DNA of 64,000 bases from an uncultured Candidatus Competibacteraceae bacterium (lineage in GTDB: Bacteria; Bacteroidota; Bacteroidia; CAIKAF01), in assembly GCA_964545365.1 (NCBI GenBank), contig CAZJFM010000001.1, positions 30,948-94,947 of the forward strand, given 5' to 3'. Shown in pieces: positions 2,215 through 50,989 of the stretch. Numbering within the stretch: position 1 is the stretch's first letter; each line of letters begins with the position of its first letter. The notes under the pieces are model-generated. The model had not been told where the DNA came from. It was given only the letters and a program-made list of their open reading frames with translations, and did not search any database. A program made the translations under genes and the position numbers.

Positions 2215-2227
2215 TCAAGAAACCTTT

Positions 2228-4130: not shown

Positions 4131-4135
4131 CTTTC

Positions 4136-8181: not shown

Positions 8182-9055
8182 TGCAAACCTTTAAAACCTT
8201 TATGCCGTCAAAAATAGTATTATTTGACTTCTGTTTTTTTGTAATAATATTTAGAAAGGTTGTCCATTGGCTAACATAAGTATCATTTATTGTTTCATTG
8301 AAAACTTCTATAAGAGTATCATTTAACTCTAATTGACCAGTTAATAAGTTAGCCTTTATTTGCCCTTTAGTACCCAAAAGCTTCAATTCCCTTTTATTTG
8401 TTTTGCTAAGGTAGCTTAAATTAATATTGACAGTCATTTTGTCGTGGTATAATAGATGATAAGAGGCAGTTTCAAACGAGTTAATTTCTAGCTCACCCCA
8501 GTTTTCTAACGATGACATTACTTTGCAAGGCATTCCAAATAGGAAATAAGCTAGGTCTATTTCATGTATCAGGTCTAAATGGACTCCACCACCTTTATTG
8601 CTATTGGCTGAATATGATTCCTTAAAATTTCCACTTCTCCATTCTGGTAAATAACTAAGACACTCGAAATGCGCAGACCAAATCTTACCAATAACCCCTG
8701 ACTCCAGAAACTCTTTCAACTTTTGTATTATTTGAAGGTATCGAAGGTTACAACCCATCAATGTGTTGATGTTTTGTAAACATTTTATTTGTTTGCGTGT
8801 GAAATTTGGAACGGTGTGGGAAACTGGCTTTTCAATAAATAAGTTATTACTTAAATGAAGGTTATCAAGGATATGTTTGGTATGGAGGTAGGTGGGGGAA
8901 CAAATTAAAACAGCATCATAAAAGTCTGTTTGACTTATCTGTTCCTTTTCACTCCTTGAGTCAATAATTTCAAAGGAAATTTTGGGATTTAAGCTTTTAA
9001 GTATTTCCATATGCTTTCGGGCTATCGACCCGTTTCCAATTGATTTAAACTTCAT
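8168..9055 (-). CDS. Gfo/Idh/MocA-family oxidoreductase (paralog 3)
   Basis: N-terminal dinucleotide-binding region and the EKP motif (FIEKPVSH). Confidence 0.7.
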   Translation of the reverse strand: MKFKSIGNGSIARKHMEILKSLNPKISFEIIDSRSEKEQISQTDFYDAVLICSPTYLHTKHILDNLHLSNNLFIEKPVSHTVPNFTRKQIKCLQNINTLMGCNLRYLQIIQKLKEFLESGVIGKIWSAHFECLSYLPEWRSGNFKESYSANSNKGGGVHLDLIHEIDLAYFLFGMPCKVMSSLENWGELEINSFETASYHLLYHDKMTVNINLSYLSKTNKRELKLLGTKGQIKANLLTGQLELNDTLIEVFNETINDTYVSQWTTFLNIITKKQKSNNTIFDGIKVLKVCNGEI

Positions 9056-9767
9056 ACCTTTTTTCTAGCTTAAATTTTACATAGAGATAATCTTCAATTG
9101 AGTCAATGTCAATGCATTTAGTTTTTTGGACTTTAATCGAAAAATTTGCATCGGTAACTTTTCTGTAGCCCATTTCAAAGAATTTTTTTCTGTATATATA
9201 AAATGCTGCGCTCAATTCATATACATTGGGAGCATCTTGTCGCCGTAAATAGCCATCTGAATCTTTGCAAATTTTGTAAGTGTTTTCTGGCCCCTTCTCA
9301 ACCATATTAAAATATGGGTTTTTAGTTGCGTGATTTACGCTCATAATTAGATCAAGGGATTTATCAGAGTCCAAAAGGTTTAAGGCGGATATTATATCTT
9401 CAACCTCGCGTTCAGGTGCAGTAACATCAAGGTCAATAACTGTATCGAAGATTAAGTTAGATTCTGCCTCACAGTATTGAATTAGATCATTTATTGCTTC
9501 AATTTTGCCTGACTGGTCGGAGGCTAGTTTTTGAGGCCTTGATCTCAGGAAATCTACACTACCATTGCCTTTATTTAGTATTTTGTCGTAGTCACTAGAA
9601 AGGCCAATTAACACGTTAATTTTAGAGGTTTTTATTCTTTGGGCTAACTCTTTAGCATGATTTATCGTAATAACAACTAATGGCTTTTCATTGATAAGTA
9701 GTAAATTTTTATTGGGAATACCCTTGGACCCTCCTCGAGCACAAATAGTTATTAATATATTTCTCAT
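9045..9767 (-). CDS. CMP-nonulosonic acid synthetase (acylneuraminate cytidylyltransferase family; NeuA/LegF/PseF-like)
   Basis: N-terminal ICARGGSKGIPNKNL motif, characteristic of CMP-NeuAc/CMP-KDO-type cytidylyltransferases. Confidence 0.8.
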   Translation of the reverse strand: MRNILITICARGGSKGIPNKNLLLINEKPLVVITINHAKELAQRIKTSKINVLIGLSSDYDKILNKGNGSVDFLRSRPQKLASDQSGKIEAINDLIQYCEAESNLIFDTVIDLDVTAPEREVEDIISALNLLDSDKSLDLIMSVNHATKNPYFNMVEKGPENTYKICKDSDGYLRRQDAPNVYELSAAFYIYRKKFFEMGYRKVTDANFSIKVQKTKCIDIDSIEDYLYVKFKLEKRYEV

Positions 9768-9773
9768 AATAAG

Positions 9774-10835
9774 TTATTTGAAGTTTACAGAATCAATTAT
9801 TTGATTAGCTTTATCATAGTCCATTGGATTCCCAATGTCTAGCCAGAAGTCTTTCATTTCGAATGGCGCAACTTTAAAACCATTTGAAAGACATTGCTCA
9901 ATTAATTCGGTAGCATCTAAGTACTTAAAGCTGTTAGCAAGTTTCCTGACTCTTTCATTCATTAAGTAGATCCCCGCATTTGCCAGATATGTGTAAGTTG
10001 GCTTTTCGGATAAGCTGGTAATTAATCCGTTTTCTAAATCAAAAATCGCATATGGAACTTTTGTAGTGTAGGGAATAGCTGCGACTACTAAATCTAACCC
10101 TTTTTCCTTAAAGCAATCATAGAAGCCCCTGAAATCCAAATTGGTTAATAAATCACTATTCATTAAAATAGTGTCTTCATAATTTAGCTTTGCATCAATA
10201 AGGTTCAAAGCTCCTGCTGTTCCTAATGGCTCCTCTTCCTTAATAAAGTTAAAATGTATATTTCCCTTGTACCTTTCTCTTAAGGATTTGATGATTTTGT
10301 CTCCTAAATACCTGATTGATATATTATAATTATCTATCCCATGTTTATTCAACCAATCTATGTTATGACAAATAATTGGTTTTTCGCCAACTTTAAGTAA
10401 GGGCTTAGGTGTGGTTAATGTATAAGGGCGCAAGCGTGATCCTTTGCCTCCTGCCATTAATAGAACGTTTACAGGCAATATCGTTTTTGTAACATTTAAA
10501 TCAATAAGTTTAACTAAAAGCTTTTCATTGTTCAATAAAGGTATAATAGTTATGTTTCTTTTCTTATAAGTTTCAAAGTCATTATAATAACTCTTTGAGC
10601 TAGTTTTAAGAAAGGCAAATTCTTTCTTCATAAAATCTTGTACTTTATCTTCCAGATTAAGGCCTGAAATTAAGCCTCTCCTTAAATCACCATCCGTTAT
10701 TGACCCGATAATTTTGTTATTTTGACTATCCTTAACAAAGAGTACTAAAGCTTTCTTATTTGAGATCCTTTCTAATTGAATTAAGGCTTCTCTTGCCGTT
10801 CGATTATTCCCTATAATATGATTATCAACAACCAT
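9774..10835 (-). CDS. CBS-domain sugar-phosphate nucleotidyltransferase (PtmE-like, GDP-sugar branch of legionaminic acid synthesis)
   Basis: A CBS pair (IGSITDGDLRRGL) is followed by the NTP-transferase motif LLMAGGKGSRLRPYT. This architecture is known from Campylobacter PtmE. Confidence 0.7.
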   Translation of the reverse strand: MVVDNHIIGNNRTAREALIQLERISNKKALVLFVKDSQNNKIIGSITDGDLRRGLISGLNLEDKVQDFMKKEFAFLKTSSKSYYNDFETYKKRNITIIPLLNNEKLLVKLIDLNVTKTILPVNVLLMAGGKGSRLRPYTLTTPKPLLKVGEKPIICHNIDWLNKHGIDNYNISIRYLGDKIIKSLRERYKGNIHFNFIKEEEPLGTAGALNLIDAKLNYEDTILMNSDLLTNLDFRGFYDCFKEKGLDLVVAAIPYTTKVPYAIFDLENGLITSLSEKPTYTYLANAGIYLMNERVRKLANSFKYLDATELIEQCLSNGFKVAPFEMKDFWLDIGNPMDYDKANQIIDSVNFK

Positions 10836-11901
10836 GGTGTATTTTTTTTAGGACTTCAATTATTTTTTTACTCGCACATTTGTCACCGTATGGGTGAGAA
10901 TTCATACTAAGACATGTGGGTGAATTCATTAGTTTTTTAACGGTATTTTGGATGAGCGTGTGGTTAAACGGTAAGTTTATGACATTTTGTCCAAAAGGTC
11001 TTCCTTTTTGCCTAATACCTACGTTAATTACCCATTTATTAAAGGCTCCTGCTTCGATTATTCCACTTGAACTATTTCCAATGATTAAGGTTGCTTTTAA
11101 GAACTCTTCCGGATACTTAGAACCTAAGTTGGGTATTATTTGAACATGTTTTGGCCATTTAATTTTTTCGATAGTTTCAATGATTTCTTCTCGACCATAA
11201 TCAGAGTTCGGATAGGTTATGATACCTTTATAACCACTTTGTAAAATTGCTTCAAAGAAATCATTAATTTCTTCTTTTGTTTGATTAATATATGGGTGTA
11301 AAGTTGCAATAAAGCACTTTTCAACATCTCTTTTTTCTTGTGCTTGAGTGGCTATTCTATAGTTGTTAAGATACTCAATACCCAATGAACCAACTGGGTA
11401 AATATTCTCATTACTTCCTGTAATACAAGATATTCGTTTCCCAAACTCTTTTGTGCTTGGAAAATGTAAGCTTGATAACCTAGTTATGAAATCTCTATAA
11501 TAGTTGTCATACGATCCTGATGTAATTTCTCCTCCGTGAATATGAGCGATTTCAAAATTGGCTAATTTAAGTGCTAATGATGCAGCAAACATTTCGTATC
11601 GATCACCAAGTGAAATGATAATATCCCAATGTTTTGATTTAGTCTGGAGAAACTCATTGAACTTATTTAAAAAGAATGCAATCTTTAGGGAGTCAGTTTT
11701 TGAATCTAATTCATCATGCTTGGTGTGTATTGTTTGTAAGCAAATAGTTTTAAATTTTATATTTTCCCAACCTTCGAAAAGAAAATGATCTCCAAATAGA
11801 ATGATTGAGGCGTTTATCCATTCTTCATTCTCAAGGGATTTAAGTAATGGAGTATAAATGTTTATGTCGGCCCTGGATGAGCTTAATATTCCTATATTCA
11901 T
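10825..11901 (-). CDS. neuC: UDP-N-acetylglucosamine 2-epimerase, hydrolysing (NeuC/LegG family)
   Basis: MNIGILSSSRADINIYTPLL, GDRYEMFAA and HIHGGE motifs typical of hydrolysing 2-epimerases. Confidence 0.8.
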   Translation of the reverse strand: MNIGILSSSRADINIYTPLLKSLENEEWINASIILFGDHFLFEGWENIKFKTICLQTIHTKHDELDSKTDSLKIAFFLNKFNEFLQTKSKHWDIIISLGDRYEMFAASLALKLANFEIAHIHGGEITSGSYDNYYRDFITRLSSLHFPSTKEFGKRISCITGSNENIYPVGSLGIEYLNNYRIATQAQEKRDVEKCFIATLHPYINQTKEEINDFFEAILQSGYKGIITYPNSDYGREEIIETIEKIKWPKHVQIIPNLGSKYPEEFLKATLIIGNSSSGIIEAGAFNKWVINVGIRQKGRPFGQNVINLPFNHTLIQNTVKKLMNSPTCLSMNSHPYGDKCASKKIIEVLKKIHHGC

Positions 11902-12911
11902 TTAAATAGAGTTAGTTTTACGGGGGCATATTTCAAAACATCTTGTTTTAGAGTTTTGCCAATTAGCGACCAATAAAGTGTTGGTGAAACTCCATTCTGG
12001 GGACGACTGACTAGAATGTCAGTTTCAGTAATAATCTTTCCTTTAGGTATAGACTTTGAAAAGTAAAGGCCTTTTCTTGCATGGTTTATATTTTCTAATT
12101 CTGTTGGACTTGGTTTAATTGTTTGATTGCCCATTAATTGTTCTGCTAATCGAATTTTAGAGACGTAATCTTTTAATTCATTCGGCTCTAAAGATGATTT
12201 ATGGTCTGGTCCTTTTAATTCTCTGCTAAGGGTAAAGTGCTTTTCAACAATTGAAATGCCAATTGCAACAGCCATCATTACACTGTAATAACCTTGTGTA
12301 TGGTCAGACAAACCTACCTTGCAGGGAAGTATTTCTTTTAACCTAAATATTTGGGAAAGATTGACTTCACTTGACGGAGTTGGATAAGCCGTTGTGCATT
12401 GCAAAAACGTAGCTTTACTCGGTGCGAATTTCAATTTGTTAAACAGAAAGTCTGAGGTTTCAATTATTTCTTTTTCTGAGGTCATTCCGGTTGATAAAAT
12501 TAAACCAATGTTTTTTTCTGCTGCATGTTTTATGAGGTGAAAATTATTGAAATCTCCTGAAGATAGTTTGACTTTTTTAACGCCTATTGAATTGAGGAAA
12601 TGAAGTGAATCAATGTCAAACGGAGTTGATATGAATTCAATGTTTATGTTTTCACAATGCCTTTTAATTTCTTCAAAATCTTCAAATTTGAGTTCTAGAC
12701 TTTTTAAAAGTTTAAATTGCGAACTTCGCCCTGTTTCTTTCTTTTGATAGGGTGCTGATAAGGCGTCTTTCAGGACTAAATTTTCTGTTTTAAAAGTTTG
12801 AAATTTCACGGCATCCGACCCGGCCTCCTTTGCATAGTCAACTAGTTTTAAGGCGTTACTTAAACTCCCATTATGGTTGATACCTGCTTCGGCAATTACA
12901 AATGTGTTCAT
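11898..12911 (-). CDS. neuB: N-acetylneuraminate/legionaminate synthase (NeuB/LegI family)
   Basis: N-terminal FVIAEAGINHNGSL...AVKFQTF TIM-barrel signature of NeuB-family aldolase-type synthases. Confidence 0.85.
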   Translation of the reverse strand: MNTFVIAEAGINHNGSLSNALKLVDYAKEAGSDAVKFQTFKTENLVLKDALSAPYQKKETGRSSQFKLLKSLELKFEDFEEIKRHCENINIEFISTPFDIDSLHFLNSIGVKKVKLSSGDFNNFHLIKHAAEKNIGLILSTGMTSEKEIIETSDFLFNKLKFAPSKATFLQCTTAYPTPSSEVNLSQIFRLKEILPCKVGLSDHTQGYYSVMMAVAIGISIVEKHFTLSRELKGPDHKSSLEPNELKDYVSKIRLAEQLMGNQTIKPSPTELENINHARKGLYFSKSIPKGKIITETDILVSRPQNGVSPTLYWSLIGKTLKQDVLKYAPVKLTLFK

Positions 12912-12920
12912 TTTTTACTT

Positions 12921-14087
12921 TTATCTTTTCACTGAACTTGGTAAATTCAATGCTACTTTTGATAACTGCATTGTGTTACTCAATTCTTGGAAGATTAGAC
13001 TCTTTTCTTTGACATACTTAAATGTATGCGCTGGTTGCCAAGGAGGGCGGACCATAATATTTGCATCGATACATGTTTTTATATTGTGTGCTCTTTCTCT
13101 TTCATTTTCAAAAATAACGGTGTTGAGCCAGTAATTTGAAATTGTTCCTTCTTTCGCAGTTAAAACATAGCCTGGGAATTTTATTGCTTTAAGAGTTTCT
13201 AAGTAATATTTATGTAACTTCTGTTTTTCAGAAATTAGAAATGGTAGTTTTTTTAGTTGTGCTACCAATAATGAGGCATTTAAATTGGGAAGTCTGTAAT
13301 TATAGCCTAGTTGATCATGATAATACTCAATTGGATCTGGAAGTTTTGCTTGGTTTGACAAATGTTTGATTTTCTTGGCTGTTTCTTCATCCTTAGTTAA
13401 TACCATTCCCCCTGAACCCGATGTAATGATTTTGTTACCGTTAAATGATAGAACGCCCATATCTCCAATAGTTCCTAGGTGTTGAGTGCCAATTTTTGAT
13501 CCTAATGATTCTGCTGCATCTTCGATGAGCTTAATATTGTATTTATGACATAAATCCCTAATAAGGAAAGCGTCTCCAGGTATGCCAAAGCTATACATTG
13601 GGATGCAAGCTTTAATTATTTTATTTGTGGTTATGTGTTTTGTACCCTCTTCTGTAATAATGCATTCGGTTTCTAAGAATTCTTGTAGCTTTTCGGGTGA
13701 AAGGCATAAATTCTTCCAATCAATGTCAATAAACAATGGTGTAGCCTTGCAGTATAAGATAGAGTTAATCGTTGCAATAAATGTGAAGCTTTGAGTGAGT
13801 ACAATATCACCTTCGGCAATATTCCCAGCAATCAATGATAAGTGTAAAGCGGCTGTACCAGAGTAGACTGGTACTGCAAATGTTACATCGCAATACGTAG
13901 ATAACATTGTAGCTGTCAGCTCCACATTGGGTCCAACGGAGGATACATAAGTAGAGTTAATACAATTTATCAACTCATCCTCCTCGTCTTGGTTGAAGTA
14001 GGGTTCATGGAGTAGAATCTGTTTATCCTCGCTAACCTGAAACCAATCTCTTATTACTTTAGGAAGTTTTATATTGTTAGATTCCAT
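12921..14087 (-). CDS. DegT/DnrJ/EryC1/StrS-family PLP-dependent sugar aminotransferase (LegC/PseC-like)
   Basis: Fold-type I aminotransferase pattern with the PLP-lysine region SFNGNKIITSG and DAAESLGS. Confidence 0.85.
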   Translation of the reverse strand: MESNNIKLPKVIRDWFQVSEDKQILLHEPYFNQDEEDELINCINSTYVSSVGPNVELTATMLSTYCDVTFAVPVYSGTAALHLSLIAGNIAEGDIVLTQSFTFIATINSILYCKATPLFIDIDWKNLCLSPEKLQEFLETECIITEEGTKHITTNKIIKACIPMYSFGIPGDAFLIRDLCHKYNIKLIEDAAESLGSKIGTQHLGTIGDMGVLSFNGNKIITSGSGGMVLTKDEETAKKIKHLSNQAKLPDPIEYYHDQLGYNYRLPNLNASLLVAQLKKLPFLISEKQKLHKYYLETLKAIKFPGYVLTAKEGTISNYWLNTVIFENERERAHNIKTCIDANIMVRPPWQPAHTFKYVKEKSLIFQELSNTMQLSKVALNLPSSVKR

Positions 14088-14977
14088 TTTTCATCTTTTG
14101 TGTAAGCATCTATATAAGAGTTCTGTGTTGTATTGATAACTACTGCCCCCTTCTTTTGAATGAGAATTTTTAAATCATGGTATCCTTTAAAGGTCAAATA
14201 AAGTTTTTTAAATTGCTCGTGAAGCAAAAAGTCAGTCCCATCAAGCTTTTCAACTGTGTTGTTTTTTGATTGCCAAAATGCATGTTTGTAGGATGTTCTT
14301 AATCTGTTATTGTCCAAAGAAATGTGTTTATGCCAGTCGTGATCAGTTCCAAATAGAAAGATTTGCTTAAACTTAAGCATAAGACTTAGGTAAATCGCAG
14401 CAACTAGTGTGTTATGAATACGTGGTGTGCCCAATCCCTTGTTCCAGAAATAATAGTTTATTATTTCTGACCCATCTACAGGTACTTGGTTAAAGAATTT
14501 TATTTCTAGATTCGGATTTTGCGAAATCTCTTTAATAAAGGTTTTTTTAGTGGCAAGCTGTGGAAGAAAAATATACATTTTCCAAGTCACCTTCATTAGG
14601 TTTTCGATAGTTTCCTTTTGGAGTTTTTGATATTTATCACTTACATTATCGGACCAGTATTCGTTGGCCTGTAACAAATGGATTTCAGGCTTCCATCTCC
14701 AAAACGCATCCGCTTTATAGAATTGATTAATTGTTAGTAACTTTACTTTATGGCGATTCTCGTTTATTTTATTTTCTTGGTGTTTAAGTGAGGGCCCATT
14801 TCCCAATATGAATAATGGGCTTTGTGAGTGTTCAAACTCTTTACTTAGCTTTTCATAATTGTGCTTTGCGTATTTTTGCTTTGCTAAATACAAAACTTTT
14901 AAAGCACTCAAAAAATCCTTGTGAACCATCTTTATCGCCATCAAAACAAAATTAGAAAGAATGTTTGGAAGGTTCAT
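14069..14977 (-). CDS. GT42-like sialyltransferase / nonulosonic-acid transferase (CstII-like)
   Basis: GNGPSLK followed by INQFY matches the Campylobacter CstII N-terminal motifs (AGNGPSLK...CNQFYFED). A later IFLFGTDHDW resembles the CstII catalytic-His region. The gene sits next to the CMP-sugar pathway. Confidence 0.5.
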   Translation of the reverse strand: MNLPNILSNFVLMAIKMVHKDFLSALKVLYLAKQKYAKHNYEKLSKEFEHSQSPLFILGNGPSLKHQENKINENRHKVKLLTINQFYKADAFWRWKPEIHLLQANEYWSDNVSDKYQKLQKETIENLMKVTWKMYIFLPQLATKKTFIKEISQNPNLEIKFFNQVPVDGSEIINYYFWNKGLGTPRIHNTLVAAIYLSLMLKFKQIFLFGTDHDWHKHISLDNNRLRTSYKHAFWQSKNNTVEKLDGTDFLLHEQFKKLYLTFKGYHDLKILIQKKGAVVINTTQNSYIDAYTKDEKWNLTI

Positions 14978-14983
14978 GTATTG

Positions 14984-17797
14984 ATGGACCTTCCCATAAT
15001 GTTTTTAATGATTTGCTTTTTTCAAGGTAGCATATTTACACCTTTATTTTCTCAATCAATAGACCTTTTAAATAGTAAACTCGCTGATGAAGAAGTCTAT
15101 GATTTACATGAACCTATTGCAGGCGAGTTGCTTTTAATGACTTCCAGAGGTTTAGTGCATGCGAAAAGGAGAAATTCTATTCAATTGGACGTAAGGCGCT
15201 ACTATGAAGGATTTCAGTTTTGGGAGGCATATGAAGATTCAACAGGGGTCTTGTGGTTAATTGGGAATAATCCCTATTTAATTCGATTTACACATAGTGG
15301 CGTTTCAAAAGTTTCCGTAGTGAATAGTGATGGTCAATTCCCATTTGGTTCATTTGGCCTAGGCGTTGTTTCAGGGCCAGTGGGAGAACTCTATCTACCC
15401 ACAGTTACTGGAAACCTTTCTTTGCTTGGTGATCGAAAGGACTTTTTTGAATCAATACGTTTTTTGAGTGAAAAGGCTCGGTTACTGCATCTAAATGATA
15501 CGATTGTTGTTGCTCCTTTGTATATATTCAATAAAAAGGATTCTAGTATTTTACAATTTGCAGATGCTCCTCCTCGGTCATCTAGAAACTATGTAATGTT
15601 TCAAAGTTTAGAGGGTATTTATGTTACCCATACTTTTCACCCTAATGAAGTGTGGTTTATTTCAAGGGAGACCGCTGATCCTCAATCAATTTCTTTAAGT
15701 GTGATTCCTGAATTAAAAGATGGTTTAATCTTTTTAGGGCATTTTTATAATCGACTTTGGTTTAGGAGTAGCAATTCATTGTTGTGGTTTGATATGCATG
15801 GAGAGTTTGGGGGCAAGTACCATCTCCCTTTTAGATTTCAACCAACGAAACTAGTTCCTTCTTTGGGGGGCGGGCTTTGGGTTCTAAGTCTAAATCATGG
15901 AATTCAACATATCAGTTTGACAGAATTAAGAGGTGATCAATATACAGGGGAAGGGGTACTTTCAACAGAAATTAATCTATTGAATGGCCTTGGTGCAGTT
16001 ACTCACGATAGGGAAAGTAAAGAAGTTGCAGTATTCAGGGGTAATCAGAGAACAAAAAAGTTTAATTATAAGCAAGAACTTCCTAAGCTTTGGGAATCTG
16101 AAGTTGTTTATTTATTTAACCAAGTTTTTATTGCATCAGAGGAGTGGTTGTTATTGGGGGATGGGGGGGCAACAACCTCTTATGAGTCATTGAGGGTGAA
16201 CCCAAGGTATATTGAGACAGAGGATAGCATTGGTGTTATGTTGACTTACAAGGGTACTTTTGGGTTGACACTTTGTCCTAATGGTACAATATCTTCGTAC
16301 AAGATATCCCCGAATACTTTTGGTAAGGCATCTTTGGGTGGAAATGGGATTTTTTTGTCTAATAATTCTGGTCTTTGGTTTTCGGAACAATCCGGAACCA
16401 AATTTCTTCCCGCAGAAAGATTAAGTGAAGAGCCCGTTAATTTTATGGGGTCTTTAAATGGAGTGACTTTTTTCCAAATGAAGGGGGGGGGGTGTTTTGT
16501 CTCAAATGGTAAAGAGCTTGTTAACCTCAATATTAGGTTGGGAGAGGTCGTCAAGTGTTTTGGTTATTCAAAACGCATTAGGGGATATTATGTGATTACA
16601 TCTAATACAATTTACCGCCTAAAGAGAATAAACAAAAATGTTTTTGTTAGGGAAGAATCTTCTTTCTTGGCCTCAATTTCAGGAATCGTAAAAGATGCAA
16701 CTATTGTAGACGATGAAGTCTTCCTTATTCGCCAAAATCATAGAGGAGAAAGTTTATGGTCATTTAGTTTGGAAGACCTATTTATTGCGGTTAAAGGTGA
16801 ATCTCATACTACTAACTTAGAAGGAGAATATATTATTCCTGAAGAGAATCCAGTATTAAATCTCTCTTTGGGAACAAACGCAATGCTTACAATGGATTCA
16901 GTTCATTTCATGTGGAGGTTGGACGGTGTTAGTAATGAGTGGAAAAGCTTTGATGGGTCTTCCATTGACTTTACCGGTTTCAAGCCTGGGAGTTTTCGTA
17001 TTTCAGTTGTCCAGCATTTTGCAAGGCATGAAATCGATAAGGACTCTTTTATAGTCCATATAACAAGACCATTTTACCAAACGCCAGCTTTCTGGGTAAT
17101 AAGTTTGTCATTATTTATTTTAATATTGACGCTTCTATTGGTTTGGAAGATTAAATCTTATGCCATTAAAGCACAGCTCGAGCTGCGTTTAATGCAGCTG
17201 GACCGTAAAGTTTTTGGCAGCAGGCTGAATGCTCATTTTGTTTTTAATACACTAAATAATTTAAAAGGGCTAGTTGAAAGTAGAAGAGCTGAGGAGGCTT
17301 CTTTTTACTTAACAAAGTTTTCAAAGGTTTTGCGCAGTTTTCTTGAGCAAACCTTTTCTGACGCAACTCCCGTTAGCAAGGAGGTTCATTTTTTATTGGA
17401 TTACCTCAGCTTAGAACATATGAGATTTCCTGGAGCATTTGAATTTACGATACGTTCTGGAGAGGATGTCTCGGAGCTTGAATTCCCAAGTGGGATTGTT
17501 CAGCCTTTTGTTGAGAATTGCTTCAAACATGCCATTTTAAAGAGGCCAAATGGTGGTGGCCATATTGATATTGTTTTTTATAGGTCAGACTCCAACGGGG
17601 TTTGTGTTGAAATTTCCGATAATGGCCCTGATAATAATAGCCAGCCAATAAAGGAGTCAGATTTTTCAGGTAGAGGGCTTCAAATCATTAAGGAGCACCT
17701 AGAGCTTTTGCGAAAGTTAAAAAGGTGGGATGTTCATTTTCAAACTGAATTTCATTGCACTGGATCGAAAATCACTATCTTAGCGAAAAAAATGTAA
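14984..17797 (+). CDS. Sensor histidine kinase, LytS/YehU type (PF06580 His_kinase + HATPase), with a roughly 700-aa extracytoplasmic sensor domain
   Basis: A signal-like N-terminus (MDLPIMFLMICFF) and a large sensor domain precede a single TM helix (AFWVISLSLFILILTLLLVW). LytS-family motifs NAHFVFNTLNNL and LEHMRF and the ATPase G-box (GRGLQII) follow. A G10 tract lies in-frame at 16491-16500. Confidence 0.8.
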   Translation: MDLPIMFLMICFFQGSIFTPLFSQSIDLLNSKLADEEVYDLHEPIAGELLLMTSRGLVHAKRRNSIQLDVRRYYEGFQFWEAYEDSTGVLWLIGNNPYLIRFTHSGVSKVSVVNSDGQFPFGSFGLGVVSGPVGELYLPTVTGNLSLLGDRKDFFESIRFLSEKARLLHLNDTIVVAPLYIFNKKDSSILQFADAPPRSSRNYVMFQSLEGIYVTHTFHPNEVWFISRETADPQSISLSVIPELKDGLIFLGHFYNRLWFRSSNSLLWFDMHGEFGGKYHLPFRFQPTKLVPSLGGGLWVLSLNHGIQHISLTELRGDQYTGEGVLSTEINLLNGLGAVTHDRESKEVAVFRGNQRTKKFNYKQELPKLWESEVVYLFNQVFIASEEWLLLGDGGATTSYESLRVNPRYIETEDSIGVMLTYKGTFGLTLCPNGTISSYKISPNTFGKASLGGNGIFLSNNSGLWFSEQSGTKFLPAERLSEEPVNFMGSLNGVTFFQMKGGGCFVSNGKELVNLNIRLGEVVKCFGYSKRIRGYYVITSNTIYRLKRINKNVFVREESSFLASISGIVKDATIVDDEVFLIRQNHRGESLWSFSLEDLFIAVKGESHTTNLEGEYIIPEENPVLNLSLGTNAMLTMDSVHFMWRLDGVSNEWKSFDGSSIDFTGFKPGSFRISVVQHFARHEIDKDSFIVHITRPFYQTPAFWVISLSLFILILTLLLVWKIKSYAIKAQLELRLMQLDRKVFGSRLNAHFVFNTLNNLKGLVESRRAEEASFYLTKFSKVLRSFLEQTFSDATPVSKEVHFLLDYLSLEHMRFPGAFEFTIRSGEDVSELEFPSGIVQPFVENCFKHAILKRPNGGGHIDIVFYRSDSNGVCVEISDNGPDNNSQPIKESDFSGRGLQIIKEHLELLRKLKRWDVHFQTEFHCTGSKITILAKKM
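16491..16500 (+). repeat. G10 homopolymeric tract inside the sensor-kinase coding sequence (a G5+G7 pair also lies at 16156-16169)
   Basis: Read directly: aag ggg ggg ggg tgt encodes K-G-G-G-C, in frame with the kinase ORF. Confidence 0.9.
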
Positions 17798-18531
17798 TGA
17801 AGATAATTGCTGTAGATGATGAGCAGCTGGCGCTTACTCAGCTGAGTAAAGTTTTTGAACTTGTTGACGTACAGGTAGTAGAACTTGATCTTGAATCCAA
17901 TCCCTTAAAAGCGATATCTAGGATAAAATCAAATAGCTATGATATAGCTTTATTGGATATCGAGATTGGTGCTGTATCAGGTTTTGACCTGATGGAAGAA
18001 ATTAAGGGAGATGTGAAAAAGATCGTTATAACCACAGCTTATGAGAATTATGCGATAAGGGCTTTACGTGAAAGAGTCTATGATTACCTTTTAAAACCTG
18101 TTGAGATAGATGATTTGAACGGGATGCTAAACAACTATTTAGAAGAAACCGCCCCAAATTCTTCTAAATCAAAAGGTAAACAAAGGATGATTTGTACGAT
18201 ACCTGTTCCTAGTGGAAAACTGTCTATTCCCTCTCTAAGCGGTTTTCGACTTATAGACTTAATGGATATCACCTATATTGAATCAGAGAACACTTATTCA
18301 AAACTTCATTTTAAAGATGGAGGCAGTCTTTGGGTTACAAAACACCTCAAGGAGTTTGATAGTGAGCTGTCAAACAATGGATTTTTTCGAATTCACCAAT
18401 CTTTCTTAATAAACCTCGCTTATGTTACAGGTTTCAACAGGGTTGAAGGTGCTAAAGTCGAGCTTTTAAATAGTATTCAATTGCCTGTAGCTCGCCGCAA
18501 GAAAGACGAGTTTCTTTCCTGCTTTAAATGA
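17797..18531 (+). CDS. LytTR-family two-component response regulator
   Basis: Receiver domain (MKIIAVDDEQLAL...LLDIEIG) plus a C-terminal LytTR DNA-binding domain. The start overlaps the kinase stop in a TAATG junction. Confidence 0.85.
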   Translation: MKIIAVDDEQLALTQLSKVFELVDVQVVELDLESNPLKAISRIKSNSYDIALLDIEIGAVSGFDLMEEIKGDVKKIVITTAYENYAIRALRERVYDYLLKPVEIDDLNGMLNNYLEETAPNSSKSKGKQRMICTIPVPSGKLSIPSLSGFRLIDLMDITYIESENTYSKLHFKDGGSLWVTKHLKEFDSELSNNGFFRIHQSFLINLAYVTGFNRVEGAKVELLNSIQLPVARRKKDEFLSCFK

Positions 18532-18592
18532 CCAAATTCTTCTTGGTTGAGGAGTTACTTCAATCTTTCAATTGCTTTTGATAATTTTGAAT

Positions 18593-21211
18593 ATGAAGTT
18601 TTATGCCTCAATTTCACTCGAAACTATCACATTTATAGTCTTTTTTTTCGTTTGTGAGACCTTGAGTGCCCAAGGGGGGTATGATCAATGGTTTTTCTCC
18701 CAGCAAACGAATTATGGACTTTCATTTTCTCCAAATGGTTCAGTTGCTGTAACATCAACCCATGCAACTCCTTTTGCTGAGGAGGGTAGTGTTGTTGTTG
18801 TTGATCCAATCATTGGAAACCTTTTATTTTACTCAAATGGAAATGTGGTTTGGGATGGAAATCATAACGTGATGCCAAATGGGGTAGGGCTACTTGCCAA
18901 CCCTTCAGTTTCAGAAAAGTGTGAAACCATCCAAATTCCAGGTGAATGCGGCCGCTTCATGATGTTTCATTCTACAGCTGTTGCTGAGAATAATGGTAAT
19001 GGTAGTTTATACTACTCTATTGTAGATATGAATTTGCCAGGTAATGGTAGTATCGCATCCCCACTTGGTGACCTCGACCCAACCCACAAAAATGTTCCTG
19101 TAATGTCAAACCCTGTGGAAGGTCTGGAGATTATAAAAGGCCCTTCGGACACAGTGGCATGGCTATTTACTGGTGTAGTTGGAAGTGGAAATTTAGAGCT
19201 CTTTAAAATTACAGTTGGAGGTGGAATAATAAATCAGTCTACAATTCCCTTAGGCATCAATTATGACGATATAAGATCTTTAGTATTCTCTTACGAGTCC
19301 TCCAAACTTGCAGTTGTTTCAAATCAAGAAAGTAAGCCAGTTATTATTATAGATTTCGACCTTTATTCCGGAGCGGTAGGGGCTGTGAATCAAGTGCCTG
19401 GGTCAATAACAGGGCCCAGTAGCTTCTATTGGACAGGTTTTTTTGATGTAGAGTGGTCGCCAAGTGGAAGATGGCTTTATTTAGCAAAATACAGGCATGG
19501 CAATCTTGCTGGCGGTATTTACCAGTACGACTTACTAAATCCGGCAGTTCCAATAACTCTACAATATTCTAACCCAGGAGGAGGTTCCAATAATTGGGTT
19601 ACTGATTTAAAAAGGACTGTCAATGGTGAAATTTTGTTTTTTGACTATCAAGGTTCGAATGGGGGGACACAAATGACTTTAGGTGAGATCCAGAATGCTG
19701 ATTCTTCTAGTCCTCAATACGTTGCCTCCAATTTATCATTTAGTCAAAATTTTAGTCCTGCCCACAAGTTTTCGAATTCTTTGAGTTCTTTCCCTGCTCC
19801 AGAATTGAATGATGATTCAGTTGTCTTGAATTGCTTAAGTTCAGTTGATACTTTATTCCCTTTTTTGAATGACGACATCGTTGCCTCAATAGCTGATTTT
19901 AATTTCACAGTTATTCAGAACTTTTCTTCCGTTATAGGCACATTTAGTGGGGATACCTTGTTTGTAGCTAGTAATAGTTCATATTCCTTAGACACCTTAA
20001 TTTATGAAGTTTGCACTGTGGGGTGTAGTCCATTTTGCGATACAGCAATTATTGTGGTTTCAGATCAAGGCCCAAGCATATCCCTTCTTCAGGACACAAC
20101 TATACTTTGCAAACCAGATTCAATTTTTATTGATACCAATGGTGTTTCTTGGGATTCATTGATTTGGTCAGATGGTTCAAATGGTGCTGCTATTTTCATC
20201 GATACAGCTGGCTCATTAGAAGTTAAAGGTTATTACGGAAATTGTATTGTGAGTGATACCATTTCTGTCTTTTTCGCACCAAGCTTGATGGAACCAGATA
20301 CAACTTCCTTAATATTTTGTGAGGGAGACTCTCTTCTTTTGTTTTTTGAGTTGGAATGCGACCTTTGTACGTATCAATGGAACACTGGGGTCGTTTCAGA
20401 TACAATTTATGCCAATACAGATGGCGTTTATCGCTTCAGTTTTTGGAATAGTTGTGATTCTTCCTATCAGGACTTCGAGGTATTTAAAAGGAATCAGCCA
20501 CCTTCAATAGCGACTGTTGATACAATTGTTTGCCCTGAGGATTCCGTCGTATTTAGTCCTTTAAGTTATTCTAGTGACTCTAGTTTAACTTGGGCAGTTA
20601 ACGATACCTATATCCCGAGCGATACCAATTTGGTACTTGGTGACTTTTTTAATGAAGTTCGGGCATCCAACGAATGTGGAATGAATACCTTCTTCATAAA
20701 CGTTAGCTATTTGATGGAGCCATTGCCTTCTGATAGCGTAATTATTTCATGTTCAGACTCTTTGCTATTTAAATTCCCTGAAGCTCTTGTTGTTTTTGAC
20801 AGTACTGGAAACCATATTAATTCAGAGATTTGGATTAAGGAAAACGAGTCAATTACGGTCTCTTACCTTTATTGTGATAGTGTGCGCTTTTTTAATTTAT
20901 TTAAAAAGTCTATAACCGAAGATATTTCAAATGCAATCCTTTCAAATGTATTCACACCCAATGGTGACGGAATTAATGATTTTTTTCATCCTGTTCCACT
21001 ACAGTTCCTTAGTACCTCAAGCTTGATCGGGGAATTCTTTATTTTCAATAGGTGGGGTTCTGAACTTTTCCATTCAACCAGCCTTAAGACACCATGGGAG
21101 CCCAACTTGGACGTTCCAGAAGGGACCTACTATTGTGTAGTTATTCTTGGTGACTCTTGTTCCCCCGGTACCCAAACTAGGCTTGTTAAGTCTTTTCAAC
21201 TGTTCCGTTGA
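18593..21211 (+). CDS. Large secreted cell-surface protein with a T9SS type-B C-terminal sorting domain (gliding-motility-associated CTD); adhesin-like, paralog 1
   Basis: Signal peptide, an N-terminal roughly 250-aa domain shared with the next gene, and Cys-containing repeat modules. The C-terminus has the FTPNGDGINDFF...IFNRWGSELF motif typical of the TIGR04131/CHU_C sorting domain. Confidence 0.7.
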   Translation: MKFYASISLETITFIVFFFVCETLSAQGGYDQWFFSQQTNYGLSFSPNGSVAVTSTHATPFAEEGSVVVVDPIIGNLLFYSNGNVVWDGNHNVMPNGVGLLANPSVSEKCETIQIPGECGRFMMFHSTAVAENNGNGSLYYSIVDMNLPGNGSIASPLGDLDPTHKNVPVMSNPVEGLEIIKGPSDTVAWLFTGVVGSGNLELFKITVGGGIINQSTIPLGINYDDIRSLVFSYESSKLAVVSNQESKPVIIIDFDLYSGAVGAVNQVPGSITGPSSFYWTGFFDVEWSPSGRWLYLAKYRHGNLAGGIYQYDLLNPAVPITLQYSNPGGGSNNWVTDLKRTVNGEILFFDYQGSNGGTQMTLGEIQNADSSSPQYVASNLSFSQNFSPAHKFSNSLSSFPAPELNDDSVVLNCLSSVDTLFPFLNDDIVASIADFNFTVIQNFSSVIGTFSGDTLFVASNSSYSLDTLIYEVCTVGCSPFCDTAIIVVSDQGPSISLLQDTTILCKPDSIFIDTNGVSWDSLIWSDGSNGAAIFIDTAGSLEVKGYYGNCIVSDTISVFFAPSLMEPDTTSLIFCEGDSLLLFFELECDLCTYQWNTGVVSDTIYANTDGVYRFSFWNSCDSSYQDFEVFKRNQPPSIATVDTIVCPEDSVVFSPLSYSSDSSLTWAVNDTYIPSDTNLVLGDFFNEVRASNECGMNTFFINVSYLMEPLPSDSVIISCSDSLLFKFPEALVVFDSTGNHINSEIWIKENESITVSYLYCDSVRFFNLFKKSITEDISNAILSNVFTPNGDGINDFFHPVPLQFLSTSSLIGEFFIFNRWGSELFHSTSLKTPWEPNLDVPEGTYYCVVILGDSCSPGTQTRLVKSFQLFR

Positions 21212-21228
21212 TTGTAATTAAATTGTCT

Positions 21229-21236
21229 TAAATTTG
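21229..21236 (+). promoter_or_regulatory. Bacteroidetes sigma-A -7 box (TAnnTTTG) upstream of adhesin paralog 2
   Basis: TAAATTTG lies 18 bp upstream of the ATG at 21254. Confidence 0.3.
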
Positions 21237-21253
21237 ATTACCAATTCTAAATC

Positions 21254-24058
21254 ATGAAAGCTTTGAGATTTTTTGTTCTTTTAATACCATACTTATTGGG
21301 CATTTCTGCACTTGCTCAGAGTGAACGGGTAAACTGGTATTTGGGTGATGCTACAAGTTTGGGGGTTCAATTTCCTTTGCCCAATTATGTTCCTAATGTT
21401 ACCACAGGTAATGCCGTTCCGATGGGGCGTGAAGGTCGATTTGTTGGCACTCACCCCATCAGTGGAAACCTTTTGTTCTATGGGAATGGCACTGTACTTT
21501 ACGATGCGTCGGGGATGACTATGACAAATGGTGCGGGGTTATCAGGCAATGTTGGTAATTTTCAGTCGGCTTGGTCTGTTCCAAATCCAGCTAATTGTGA
21601 CCAATATTACTATATCTACAATTCCGCGGTTAGAGAAAATGCTCCTGGAGGAGTCTTTTATTCAATTATAGACATGTCAGCACAAGGGAATGGCACTCCA
21701 GGCAATCCACTTGGCGAAGTTGTAATGGCTCAAAAGGATGTTCCTATTTATCAGCCCTCTTGGGAAGGTTTTACAGTTATTCAAAGTGTTGGTAATCATG
21801 CATACTGGCTTTTAATAGGAAATGGAAACGGCTCTTCGATTGAGGTATTCAATATTTCTGCTGGAGGTGTTAACTTTTCCAGTTCATTTCCTTTGCCAGC
21901 AGCTTTAGGCGACATAAGAACAATAAGAGCCAATCGATTAGGAACACAAGTGTTCTTGGTTAGTGGTGTTGAGTCTGACCCATCCTATATTATTGACTTT
22001 AATCCTGCTATCGGGGCTCTTTCTAACCCAATCGCTATCCCAGCATTTGGTGCAAGTAACAATTTTTTTGACGGAAATTTGGATGCGGAGTTTTCATTTG
22101 ATGGTACTAAAGTGTATGTTTCAAAAATGCGCAACCCAGGCGCAGGGTCGGGTGGGCAGATATATCAAGTTGACTTATCAAATTTAGGAAACCCACCCGT
22201 AATAGTGTATGATAATATGGGTGGCAATAATGATTTTGTTAGCGGTTTGAGGAGAGGGCCTAATAAGCAAATTTACTTTGTTCACCGGGAGCCGACAAAT
22301 GGGTATCGTTATTTGGGTGTTATCCAAAACCCCAATGCTGCCGGCCTAGCCTGTAACCCACTTTCCTCTGGTATTGATTTGGGCCAAGGGTTCAATGAAG
22401 AATATTTTGGATTACCTAATTTTTTTCTGGAGAACTTCAAACCTGTTGCAATAACTGATTCAATTATAGTCCCGTGTAATCAAGGTTTTGCGGCTCAGGT
22501 TTCACCACTAATCAATGATTTGGATTCCAACTTTACTGCTTTTTCATTATCCCTTATTGATATTCCTCAAGGGGTTCAAGCTTCAATTAATGGTACGCAG
22601 GTTGATGTTGTTTTTCCAAATGTTTTCTTAAATCAGGACACTATTTTTTATGAGGTTTGTGACGATCATTGTTTTCAAAAGTGTGACACAGGCTTTATTG
22701 TGTTAGTTCCAATTTCCAATGTTCCTTCGCCTTTTTGGCCTAATGATACAAGTCTTTGTGCTTCCAGCCCATTACCGCTATTTACCCCATTATCTAATCA
22801 AGGACTTTTACATACTTGGAGCACTGGAGCGACAACTGATACCATATTCGTTTCTAATACTGGTGACTATTCAGTAGAAGTTAACTTGGGCAATTGCGTA
22901 ATTCGGGATACTATTTTTGTAGATATTATATCAATTCCCAGCCCCAACCTAGGACTCAACCGACTCATTTGCTCCGGTATTCCTCCAATCCTTGACGCTA
23001 CCTGCTCCGGGTGCTCGTACCTTTGGTCTACTGGTTCAACTGCCGGGTCTATTGCTCCAACCCAACCCGGTAATTATTGGGTGCAAGTCACTTCCCAGTG
23101 CGGGGTCGGTTCCGATACCGTGGCCGTTACTTCCTCGGTTCAACCTTTTGTAGAACTTGGTCCTGATCGGCTCGTTTGCGATACATCAGACTTATTTATT
23201 GATTACTCTTGCCTTGGTTGCTACTACTTGGTGAATGACCAAGCAGCAGACTCCTCGCTTACTATTGAAGCCTCAGGAACCTATTGGGTGGAAGTGGGTA
23301 ACGATTGTGGTACGGTTTACGATACGGTAACCCTTGTTATGGGAGCCAATGCCGAATTTAATATCCTCGACGATTCCTTGGTTTGTCCCGGCGATACCGC
23401 TTACCTTACCTCTTCGGGTGCCGTTGCTCCATACACTTGGTCTGATGGTTCCTCGGGAGATACGCTTATGATTACCGAACGCGGTTGGTACACGCTCACC
23501 TGGAGCGGAGTATGCGGTGAAACTACTGACTCGGTTTATATAAAACAGCTCCTGCCTTCGGAAATAACGCTAGGTGATGACTTTACCGTGTGCGATAGTG
23601 GCTTCGCTCCTATTTATATTGAAAACTTGGGAGATGACGCCGAATACCTCTGGTGGAATGGTACAACAGGAGATACCGCTTACGTATTTAGAGAGGACAA
23701 CTACGTGGTGCGCGTGGATTATTGCGAAGATTTTTACACCGACACCATTTTTGTGCGGTATACCGACGAAACAGACGGCCTCTTTATACCCAATACCTTT
23801 ACTCCTAATGGCGACGGACTCAATGAAGTCTTTTATATTCGCGGGCTTGACCCGGCTTGGCTAAGTTTTGAATTTCTTGTGTTTGACCGTTGGGGGCAAA
23901 TTGTGTATCAAACCGATGATCCTCGGAAAGGATGGGAAGGATTAGATCCTTCCGGTGCCAATAAGCTCGACGACGGTTCCTATGTGTATAAGGTCATTTA
24001 TACCTCCCCTTGCCGATCGGAATGGGAATATACCGGCGTAGTAAACATGATTCGTTGA
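21254..24058 (+). CDS. Large secreted cell-surface protein with a T9SS type-B C-terminal sorting domain; adhesin-like, paralog 2
   Basis: Signal peptide (MKALRFFVLLIPYLLGISALAQS), an N-terminal domain paralogous to the previous gene, and four or five roughly 78-aa Cys-containing repeats. The C-terminus is FTPNGDGLNEVFYIRGL...VFDRWGQIVY. Confidence 0.7.
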   Translation: MKALRFFVLLIPYLLGISALAQSERVNWYLGDATSLGVQFPLPNYVPNVTTGNAVPMGREGRFVGTHPISGNLLFYGNGTVLYDASGMTMTNGAGLSGNVGNFQSAWSVPNPANCDQYYYIYNSAVRENAPGGVFYSIIDMSAQGNGTPGNPLGEVVMAQKDVPIYQPSWEGFTVIQSVGNHAYWLLIGNGNGSSIEVFNISAGGVNFSSSFPLPAALGDIRTIRANRLGTQVFLVSGVESDPSYIIDFNPAIGALSNPIAIPAFGASNNFFDGNLDAEFSFDGTKVYVSKMRNPGAGSGGQIYQVDLSNLGNPPVIVYDNMGGNNDFVSGLRRGPNKQIYFVHREPTNGYRYLGVIQNPNAAGLACNPLSSGIDLGQGFNEEYFGLPNFFLENFKPVAITDSIIVPCNQGFAAQVSPLINDLDSNFTAFSLSLIDIPQGVQASINGTQVDVVFPNVFLNQDTIFYEVCDDHCFQKCDTGFIVLVPISNVPSPFWPNDTSLCASSPLPLFTPLSNQGLLHTWSTGATTDTIFVSNTGDYSVEVNLGNCVIRDTIFVDIISIPSPNLGLNRLICSGIPPILDATCSGCSYLWSTGSTAGSIAPTQPGNYWVQVTSQCGVGSDTVAVTSSVQPFVELGPDRLVCDTSDLFIDYSCLGCYYLVNDQAADSSLTIEASGTYWVEVGNDCGTVYDTVTLVMGANAEFNILDDSLVCPGDTAYLTSSGAVAPYTWSDGSSGDTLMITERGWYTLTWSGVCGETTDSVYIKQLLPSEITLGDDFTVCDSGFAPIYIENLGDDAEYLWWNGTTGDTAYVFREDNYVVRVDYCEDFYTDTIFVRYTDETDGLFIPNTFTPNGDGLNEVFYIRGLDPAWLSFEFLVFDRWGQIVYQTDDPRKGWEGLDPSGANKLDDGSYVYKVIYTSPCRSEWEYTGVVNMIR

Positions 24059-24103
24059 GAAACCTGAAGGCTTTGTATCTTTGTAGGAAATTCAACATAT
24101 TCT

Positions 24104-24490
24104 ATGGAATTATCCGGCACCATTAAGCAAGTTCTCCCCCTACAAACTGGCGAAGGCCGCAATGGCCCGTGGCGCAAACAAGAGTTTATTCTTCAAACCG
24201 AAGGCCCATACCCTAAAGATGTGTGTATAGCCGTTTGGGGAAATAAAATCGACGGCGCCCCCATTCAAGAAAACCAAAAAGTACAGGTGTCTTTTGACGT
24301 TGAAAGCCGGGAATATAACGGTCGCTGGTATACCGATGTAAAAGCTTGGAAAGTTCAAGCGGCCGATGCTGCTGCTGCTCCGCCGCCGGCAGCAAATGCG
24401 CCTTCCGGAGCCGCAGCTCCTCCCTTTCCAGCAGCCCCTCCTCCTCCTCCTATGCCCGGTGGTGGTGGAGAAGACGATTTACCCTTCTAA
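24104..24490 (+). CDS. DUF3127-family small protein with a Pro/Ala/Gly-rich tail ending in an SSB-like acidic tip
   Basis: The N-terminal roughly 85 aa match the DUF3127 pattern (MELSGTIKQVLPLQTGEGRNGPWRKQEFIL...). The tail is AAAPPPAANAPSGAAAPPFPAAPPPPPMPGGGG followed by EDDLPF. Confidence 0.6.
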   Translation: MELSGTIKQVLPLQTGEGRNGPWRKQEFILQTEGPYPKDVCIAVWGNKIDGAPIQENQKVQVSFDVESREYNGRWYTDVKAWKVQAADAAAAPPPAANAPSGAAAPPFPAAPPPPPMPGGGGEDDLPF

Positions 24491-24559
24491 GGTCAGCTTT
24501 CAAAACTTCCTTTGATTTTCTCTTAAAAGGAAATCGCTTGAATAGGGCCCTTTATATTT

Positions 24560-24740
24560 AGCGCGTGGTCTTAATACGGAGCTTAAGCGGGAGGGATGGA
24601 GCCGATACCCCACAAGCCCAAAGCAATGACGCGCAAGGGCTTGCCGGGCGGCGCAACGCAAGCCACGGCAAGTCCTATGGGCGACTTGCTTTGGGGTGAG
24701 GAGTAAAGGTGAGAGCCCGTCCCTATGGGCCCGCCCAAAT
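24560..24740. other. GC-rich structured intergenic element between convergent genes
   Basis: A 10-bp inverted repeat CCCAAAGCAA (24617-24626) pairs with TTGCTTTGGG (24686-24695) around a GC-rich loop. GCCC-GTCCCTAT-GGGC forms a further hairpin. No ORF. Confidence 0.25.
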
Positions 24741-24965
24741 TCACTCCCCGTATTCTATGATTTCGTTGCCGTCCTTGTCTTTTCTGCTTCCCTTAGCTTT
24801 TAGTTCTATGGTGCCTTTTGGCTTTCGGGGCTCCGAATGGCCTCGGTTTGTGCTGTTGGGGTTGCTGCTTCCTTGGCGGGCTTTAAATAGACGGATTAGA
24901 AATTTTAGGGCATAGTACATGCCTATCACTAATAAAACGGTACGTGCTATGGCCCAGATTTTCAT
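24741..24965 (-). CDS. Small membrane-anchored protein (DUF4834-like?)
   Basis: 74 aa with an N-terminal TM helix (IARTVLLVIGMYYALKFLI) and a charged C-terminal tail, immediately downstream of the carB stop. The family assignment is uncertain. Confidence 0.3.
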   Translation of the reverse strand: MKIWAIARTVLLVIGMYYALKFLIRLFKARQGSSNPNSTNRGHSEPRKPKGTIELKAKGSRKDKDGNEIIEYGE

Positions 24966-24980
24966 GAGGCAAAGATAGGC

Positions 24981-37932: not shown

Positions 37933-38037
37933 ATCGTTTGGTTTGTTTTAGAGATTACATGCCCTATTAAGCCGGCAAATATAGAACATCGCGTGGGTTA
38001 TTACAGGGGGCTATAATTTTGGAAAGTCCTAAGGAGT

Positions 38038-39011: not shown

Positions 39012-39099
39012 GGTGCAAAAATACAAAAAGGGAGTGTTGAAGCCTAGTAGATTAGCTTTGTTGGACTGTTTTGGTACAAAAATTGCGTTAAAGTAAGGA

Positions 39100-40713: not shown

Positions 40714-40738
40714 CTTTAGTCGGTTTGGTCAGACAAAA

Positions 40739-42166: not shown

Positions 42167-42175
42167 TTTTGAAGT

Positions 42176-43787: not shown

Positions 43788-43789
43788 GA

Positions 43790-50786: not shown

Positions 50787-50790
50787 ATGC

Positions 50791-50982: not shown

Positions 50983-50989
50983 TTTTTTG

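Follow-up and report, generated by a model that had tools for sequence, protein, structure and literature searches.

An in-frame G10 tract in the sensor domain of a histidine kinase gene from a marine Bacteroidia population as a candidate phase-variation switch

Homopolymer switches in two-component genes are textbook cases for a few pathogens (bvgS and flgS/flgR). To our knowledge, such switches are hardly documented in environmental Bacteroidota, in which phase variation has been attributed mainly to DNA inversions. A run of ten guanines (G10) inside a histidine kinase gene of an uncultured marine Bacteroidia bacterium raises the question of whether such a switch exists there. The run lies in a stretch of 64,000 nucleotides (nt) of contig CAZJFM010000001.1 (GenBank assembly GCA_964545365.1, positions 30,948 to 94,947 of the forward strand); we refer to the whole of this 64-kb stretch as the window and count all positions from its first letter. 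An initial annotation, made from the letters alone, proposed that the run turns the kinase on and off by gaining or losing a base. This interpretation of the tract as a phase-variation switch is partly supported by the analysis reported here, and we put the probability of real slipped-strand heterogeneity between G9 and G10 that switches the kinase on and off at roughly 0.6.

Reading frame of the tract and the effect of length changes

The kinase gene occupies positions 15008–17797 of the forward strand, with its start as called in public assemblies, and encodes 929 amino acids (aa). The G10 homopolymer, which is the proposed slippage site, spans 16483–16492 on the same strand. The initial annotation was right that the run exists and that it falls in the sensor part of the kinase, but placed it at 16491–16500, so that the true position is 8 nt upstream. 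The first G is the third base of a lysine codon (AAG, 16481–16483) and the remaining nine form three GGG glycine codons; read in frame as AAG GGG GGG GGG TGT, the tract encodes K-G-G-G-C (residues 492–496), just as had been proposed. G or C runs of about 7–8 or more are considered prone to slippage. The G10 exceeds this length and was seen in two independent metagenome-assembled genomes (MAGs). In the window, G runs of 5, 6, 7, 8, 9 and 10 bases number 31, 5, 1, 0, 0 and 1, respectively, and no G or C run longer than 7 occurs besides the G10.

Simulated changes of one base truncate the kinase in either direction. In a G9 (–1) allele, translation reaches a TGA stop at 16593–16595, 33 codons past the tract, which gives a product of 528 aa, and a G11 (+1) allele leads to a TAA stop at 16510–16512, 6 codons past the tract, and a product of 501 aa (both stops on the forward strand). 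The products end before the single transmembrane helix (aa 694–716, forward strand 17087–17155, located 3' of the tract by a hydropathy scan) and lack the kinase domains, which bears out the truncation predicted by the initial annotation. Simulated G7 and G13 alleles keep the frame. A 528-aa product ending in ...KGGGVLSQMVK...GDIM has in fact been called on a metagenome scaffold in the European Nucleotide Archive (ENA), with a 304-aa open reading frame (ORF) after it. With the sequence FFQMKGGGVLSQMVK, this product matches the –1 frame exactly, and its frame changes directly after KGGG.

The sensor domain also holds a G5-AT-G7 cluster at 16156–16169, for which the earlier coordinates were correct, and a G6 run at 15865–15870 (both on the forward strand). 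Two G6 runs had been misplaced, at 15855–15860 and at 18675–18680: the former is the run at 15865–15870, and the latter, at 18674–18679 (forward strand), belongs to the signal-peptide region of the first type IX secretion system (T9SS) cargo gene and therefore lies outside the kinase. A hairpin flagged as a terminator at 16466–16493, formed by G-U wobble pairs between T6CC and the G run, most probably reflects no more than these two homopolymers. An antisense ORF (16246–16554) gave no family match and was taken as spurious. The scan for sigma-70 promoters and terminators is uninformative for Bacteroidota.

Tract length in related assemblies

In the collections searched, we found three lineages: that of the window, to which an ENA metagenome scaffold (L001) also belongs; a relative represented by the 'Bacteroidia bacterium' MAG GCA_030427255.1 (L002/L004), the DNA of which is 97.3% identical to the window; and a distant lineage represented by a Logan contig from SRR14300309 (L003), with a kinase that is 57% identical at the protein level. 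The tract is G9 in L001 and an intact G10 in L002/L004, and the site reads AACGGGGTT in L003. Two wider searches added little: scans of JGI metagenomes, both with a DNA pattern of variable tract length and guided by protein, returned no match, and a scan of species-representative genomes returned the 97% relative and one unrelated kinase, and nothing more.

For sample SAMEA7392479, the source of the L001 scaffold (ERZ23491156), the run is ERR4674194, from Varna Bay in the Black Sea (bioRxiv 10.1101/2023.07.09.547343). Over 21,587 nt, matching 5008–26595 of the window, the scaffold shows 0 mismatches and a single gap, which is a G9 in place of the G10. At this site the Logan assembly of ERR4674194 is interrupted: one contig ends at 16491 (in ATGAA followed by nine Gs) and the next begins at 16499; otherwise, its contigs are 100% identical to the window except for two single-nucleotide polymorphisms (SNPs) elsewhere, in ftsK. 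The NCBI and ENA contigs are nearly equal in size (111,479 nt and 111,443 nt), which suggests that they are independent assemblies of one population. The evidence for a polymorphism, G9 or G10 with unchanged flanks, is at the level of assemblies and comes from one Illumina run; the Black Sea population appears to be a mixture of the two. Public records of one population disagree at one base, with a split pseudogene annotated in one record and an intact kinase in the other.

Other homopolymers served as controls in the same comparisons. The Logan contigs span four stretches of the window (4069–16491, 16499–25505, 37805–46567 and 49573–59833), about 40 kb in all, and differ from it by two SNPs and no indels. 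These SNPs, at 57810 and 57819 in ftsK (C/A and A/C, 9 nt apart), are the sole substitutions in that length, a sign of some microdiversity within the population. Sixteen other homopolymers are crossed by the Logan contigs and the ENA scaffold (21.6 kb), including T9 at 38780, A9 at 56294, seven A8 or T8 runs, one G7, four G6 and two C6; none shows a break or a difference in length. The remaining Logan breakpoints fall in ordinary coding sequence. Together, the 16 unaffected homopolymers and the ordinary breakpoints elsewhere argue that the discordance is specific to the G10.

In the distant lineage, a run of nine thymines (T9; TGT TTT TTT TTA) lies 3 nt downstream of the position that aligns with the G10 (L003 5998–6006; nt 1482–1490 of the orthologous gene). 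It is the longest homopolymer of that orthologue, and the chance of such a coincidence of position is about 0.01, a figure that concerns two lineages only. According to the initial annotation, a G10 of fixed length in all related genomes, together with orthologues free of any homopolymer at the site, would speak against a switch. A fixed G10 was not seen, given the G9 in an otherwise identical scaffold and the Logan break at the tract, and the distant orthologue does carry a homopolymer beside the site, though it is not a G run.

The kinase gene itself is a maintained gene and not a decaying pseudogene, because the ratio of non-synonymous to synonymous substitution rates (dN/dS) between the window and L002 is 0.19, similar to that of neighbouring genes and indicative of purifying selection. 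Residues 451–550, around the tract, form the most divergent segment of the protein (30–44% identity). A requirement for Gly-Gly-Gly at the protein level was ruled out, because the orthologue has NNGV there. We also rejected an ancient compensated frameshift 3' of the tract, because shifted-frame translations of the orthologue showed no similarity.

A switch, an artefact or recoding

In the explanation that we favour, slipped-strand mispairing at the G10 during replication would produce G9 (or G11) genomes, in which early termination of translation would leave a fragment of about 500 aa without a membrane anchor or a kinase. The early stop would lie 1.2 kb 5' of the start of the response regulator gene. 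Because that start overlaps the kinase stop, expression of the regulator would also be expected to drop, and the whole two-component system would be OFF; we infer this polarity from general knowledge of translational coupling and Rho-dependent polarity. Given that G9 is itself slippery, the change would probably be reversible, through a return from G9 to G10, and the Black Sea population would hold both G10 (ON) and G9 (OFF) genomes. On this explanation the discordance between assemblies would be biological, and the regulon may include the adjacent T9SS cargo genes, the nearby glycan cluster or both.

A technical origin of the same observations has to be weighed against this. In that case the G10 would be fixed, the G9 in the ENA scaffold and the Logan break would stem from slippage in Illumina sequencing or in the polymerase chain reaction, from loss of poly-G signal and from choices made by the assemblers at modest coverage, and the tract would be a chance homopolymer in a G-rich gene. 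We consider such an artefact, which the initial annotation had named as the alternative and which is the chief rival here, possible but unlikely, and several observations that weigh against a real switch fit it well. The three discordant assemblies certainly or probably all trace to one Illumina run, so they share its technical noise and are not independent. Illumina reads are documented to degrade past G tracts (the 'G's end' effect; PMC9187656), and the Logan gap of 16492–16498 continues beyond the tract, in line with read degradation behind the run. The right-hand Logan contig begins 15 nt past the branch point of a clean G9/G10 bubble, an offset that degraded or noisy reads or low coverage explain at least as well as two clean alleles would. 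The composition of the gene also bears on the question: GGG accounts for 24 of its 75 glycine codons (32%, compared with 13% in the other genes of the window), AAG is also unusually frequent and the GC skew reaches +0.32 around 16000–16500. This richness in GGG makes G runs likelier to arise in the kinase gene than elsewhere. In dinucleotide-preserving shuffles, G9 or C9 matches averaged 1.0, and the observed 2 were reached in 30 of 100 shuffles; Markov models of order 1–5 predict 0.02–0.15 G10 runs per window, a figure that falls to 0.007 for the local island of low GC. The G10 is therefore an outlier for one window but not a decisive one, and roughly 1–5 such runs per genome of a few megabases could occur without selection.

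Further observations count on the same side. The window offers no like-for-like control, because it has no other G or C run of 8 or more. Nor does the window show an excess of tracts over chance, or a set of several loci (a phasome), since the G10 is one tract in 64 kb and Tandem Repeats Finder returned no further repeat candidates in the window. The tract is in the middle of the gene and not near its 5' end. The aligned site in L003 (AAT AAC GGG GTT, or N-N-G-V in the context Q-N-N-G-V-C) has no G run, and just three lineages in more than 15 billion proteins and the JGI metagenomes are too few for a test of conservation.

Against a technical origin stands the nature of the discordance. A consensus normally reports the majority allele, and a flip from G10 to G9 needs a large share of shorter reads; the length error of Illumina sequencing at 10-mers is usually put at a few per cent. 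Over 21.6 kb nothing but the tract differs, and none of the other homopolymers is discordant over about 40 kb. The flip of the consensus between assemblers, together with a break of the assembly graph at this one site, argues for a large minority allele.

The length change could also occur in RNA, if RNA polymerase slipped or ribosomes shifted frame on the G run. One essentially stable DNA allele would then yield the full kinase as well as a secreted fragment of the sensor, of about 500 aa. The truncated product does retain its N-terminal leader and the greater part of the sensor, and the T9 beside the site in the orthologue is a classic slippage substrate; runs of nine or more identical bases can cause transcriptional slippage, although these are mostly A or T runs. 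However, the difference was observed in DNA assemblies, an Rfam search found no RNA family and no stimulatory RNA structure is present, and the shifted frames give short tails that are not conserved and, in the orthologue, show no similarity. We therefore regard recoding as very improbable.

A stronger proposal than heterogeneity itself, and the one made in the initial annotation, is that the tract is a selected contingency locus that stochastically switches downstream T9SS surface proteins ('adhesins'). It draws on all the points in favour of slipped-strand heterogeneity. In addition, the order of glycan cluster, kinase, regulator and T9SS cargo gene has been kept despite a kinase identity of 57%, and the same site in the other lineage again has a homopolymer of nine or more, built from another base; these two points carry most of the weight. 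On the other hand, a regulatory link from the kinase system to the cargo genes is hypothetical, the cargo proteins show the type B/CHU_C C-terminal domain alone, with no adhesin domains, and at about 900 aa are not giant. The tract is also single and mid-gene, and only two lineages bear on the site, which makes the coincidence of position anecdotal. Overall, we find this proposal doubtful. For the narrower claim of a contingency locus whose tract is maintained by selection, we would allow about half the probability given to the heterogeneity. It is rather unlikely, in our view, that a slippery homopolymer (G10 here and T9 in the sister lineage) is kept by selection in a hypervariable sensor loop as a bet-hedging switch of the two-component system, and hence of T9SS surface proteins, a nonulosonic-acid glycan or both.

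The favoured explanation, slipped-strand switching of the kinase, has precedents. In Bordetella pertussis, according to the account of bvgS in PMC1891110 (which cites Stibitz et al. 1989), a C6/C7 tract slips by one base in either direction, which truncates the sensor kinase and reversibly turns its regulon off. In both cases a two-component sensor kinase is encoded with a G/C homopolymer inside its reading frame, and a change of ±1 truncates it. By contrast, BvgS belongs to an unrelated family (VFT sensor, HisKA and hybrid phosphorelay) in a host-restricted pathogen, its tract has 6–7 C and its switch was shown phenotypically, whereas the present locus has a PF06580 kinase with an orphan, beta-rich sensor and a G10, in an uncultured marine Bacteroidia, and is known from sequence alone. 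In Campylobacter jejuni, flgS and flgR show homopolymer phase variation in two-component genes (PMC3930126). The likeness extends to ON/OFF homopolymers in such genes and to a region linked to nonulosonic-acid glycosylation and Maf/MptE-like genes, but the flgS/flgR tracts consist of A or T and belong to a sigma-54 system for the control of flagella. Campylobacter also has no mismatch repair and carries dozens of poly-G loci, compared with the one tract seen in the 64 kb studied here. Finally, G tracts in pilus genes of the commensal Bifidobacterium breve were found in mixed lengths of G10–G12 in a single culture (PMC9187656). There, too, the tract is intragenic, the organism is not a pathogen, databases report one length and the same caveat about Illumina reads applies. 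Unlike the tract studied here, that of B. breve lies in a structural pilin gene and not in a regulator, and maximum-depth sequencing confirmed that its length is heterogeneous.

Should the mixture of G9 and G10 be biological, the locus would represent a homopolymer switch, in a natural population, in a two-component sensor kinase of an uncultured marine Bacteroidia. The mechanism, a homopolymer switch in a two-component gene, would be a known one in an unusual setting, in that it would act on a PF06580 kinase with an orphan sensor next to T9SS cargo genes and a nonulosonic-acid island. If, in addition, selection kept the tract as a bet-hedging switch, which we regard as rather unlikely, phase variation of master regulators through repeats would extend from host-adapted pathogens to planktonic Bacteroidota, in which it might, for instance, protect against phages or grazers.

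Kinase architecture and genomic neighbourhood

From its start at 15008, the kinase comprises a hydrophobic N-terminal leader, an all-beta sensor, one transmembrane helix, a PF06580 domain and a probable HATPase_c domain. Other possible starts are at 14984 and 14999, and the longest ORF (14921–17797) begins with GTG at 14921. The extracytoplasmic sensor domain (15008–17086, forward strand) has about 670–690 aa and holds the G10, the G5-AT-G7 cluster and one G6 run. The PF06580 His_kinase domain (17216–17434, forward strand), of the LytS/YehU type for dimerisation and phospho-acceptance, scored 59.4 bits in Pfam against a cutoff of 25.2, and the phospho-acceptor motif NAHFVFNTLN is present. HATPase_c, which extends to about 17700, scored 16.9 bits, under its cutoff of 26.4, in a region that is conserved in the orthologues. 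Describing the kinase as LytS-type, as the initial annotation did, is correct for the PF06580 core but not for the sensor: the 5TMR-LYT membrane sensor of LytS is replaced here by one transmembrane helix and an extracytoplasmic domain, so that the protein has a LytS kinase core but is no LytS orthologue.

The sensor is an orphan by sequence. An exhaustive phmmer search of 1.84 billion representatives found P0002 alone outside its own species cluster, which is too few homologues for a deep alignment; the cluster member P0020 proved to be unrelated noise. The AlphaFold (AF2) model, built from three sequences, has a predicted local distance difference test score (pLDDT) of 42 and was not used for a fold search. 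This low-confidence model places a helix at 693–731 and hints that the KGGG might sit in a turn between two strands. The overall plan resembles that of the Y_Y_Y/Reg_prop kinases of Bacteroidota (PF07494/PF07495 with PF06580), in which a LytTR regulator likewise neighbours a kinase with a large beta-rich extracytoplasmic sensor, one transmembrane helix, PF06580 and HATPase_c, the last of which is a sub-cutoff match in the present protein. Unlike those kinases, this one has no detectable Reg_prop repeats, its Y_Y_Y match at the C-terminal end of the sensor is weak and sub-threshold in Pfam, and its sensor has the single outside homologue mentioned above. We know of no homopolymer switch in the Y_Y_Y/Reg_prop–LytTR kinase family.

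Although the initial annotation placed the kinase directly upstream of two giant surface adhesins, a LytTR-family response regulator (17797–18531, forward strand; Response_reg 59 bits, LytTR 66 bits) lies between them. Its ATG overlaps the TAA of the kinase (ATGTAATG), an arrangement that suggests translational coupling of the two genes. The supposed adhesins are T9SS cargo proteins that are not giant, both encoded on the forward strand. The first (18593–21211; 872 aa) has a type B/CHU_C C-terminal domain and is 89% identical to the gene product at the same position in L003; the second (21254–24058; 934 aa) is a paralogue of the first, with 27% identity over the full length. CHU_C scored 44 and 61 bits in the two proteins, and TIGR04131 scored 42 bits in the second and was sub-threshold in the first. 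In Pfam and NCBIfam, neither protein matched a domain beyond the T9SS type-B/CHU_C sorting domain, and no adhesin domains were detected.

On the other side of the kinase, and divergent from it, is a low-GC cluster for the biosynthesis of nonulosonic acid or a surface glycan (751–14941, reverse strand). Its genes encode NeuB, a NeuC-like epimerase, a cytidylyltransferase, DegT, an MptE/Maf-like protein and an MBOAT protein, among others. The cluster is conserved beside the kinase in L002 and L003, and the order of glycan cluster, kinase, regulator and T9SS cargo gene is the same in L003; the cluster is a possible regulatory target of the kinase system. The MptE-like gene (PF01973, Maf/DUF115-type; 14069–14941) adjoins the kinase in divergent orientation and carries no tract in this copy. 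In Campylobacter, the MptE/Maf family is among the poly-G phase-variable flagellin glycosylation genes. Within the cluster, a T run at 12910 differs in length by one base from that in L002; it lies in the short gap that separates the start of NeuB from the stop of DegT.

The glycan cluster, the kinase, the regulator and the first T9SS cargo gene together occupy a low-GC island (750–21200), in which genes have a GC content of 31–39%, compared with 44–53% in the remaining window. Synonymous divergence from L002 is 0.01–0.10 in the island and 0.18–0.23 in the flanking genes CHU2, DUF3127 and carB; because it is lower inside the island than in the flanks, the island may have been exchanged or swept more recently than the core. 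Conservation relative to L003 is a mosaic: the regulator and the first cargo protein are 87% and 89% identical at the amino-acid level, compared with about 50% for the kinase sensor and about 65% for the glycan genes. Nucleotide similarity to L003 (17189–20507 in the window and 6692–10009 in L003) begins just past the boundary between sensor and transmembrane helix, inside the cytoplasmic part of the kinase, so that the mosaic would reflect either a recombination breakpoint within the kinase gene or very fast evolution of the sensor.

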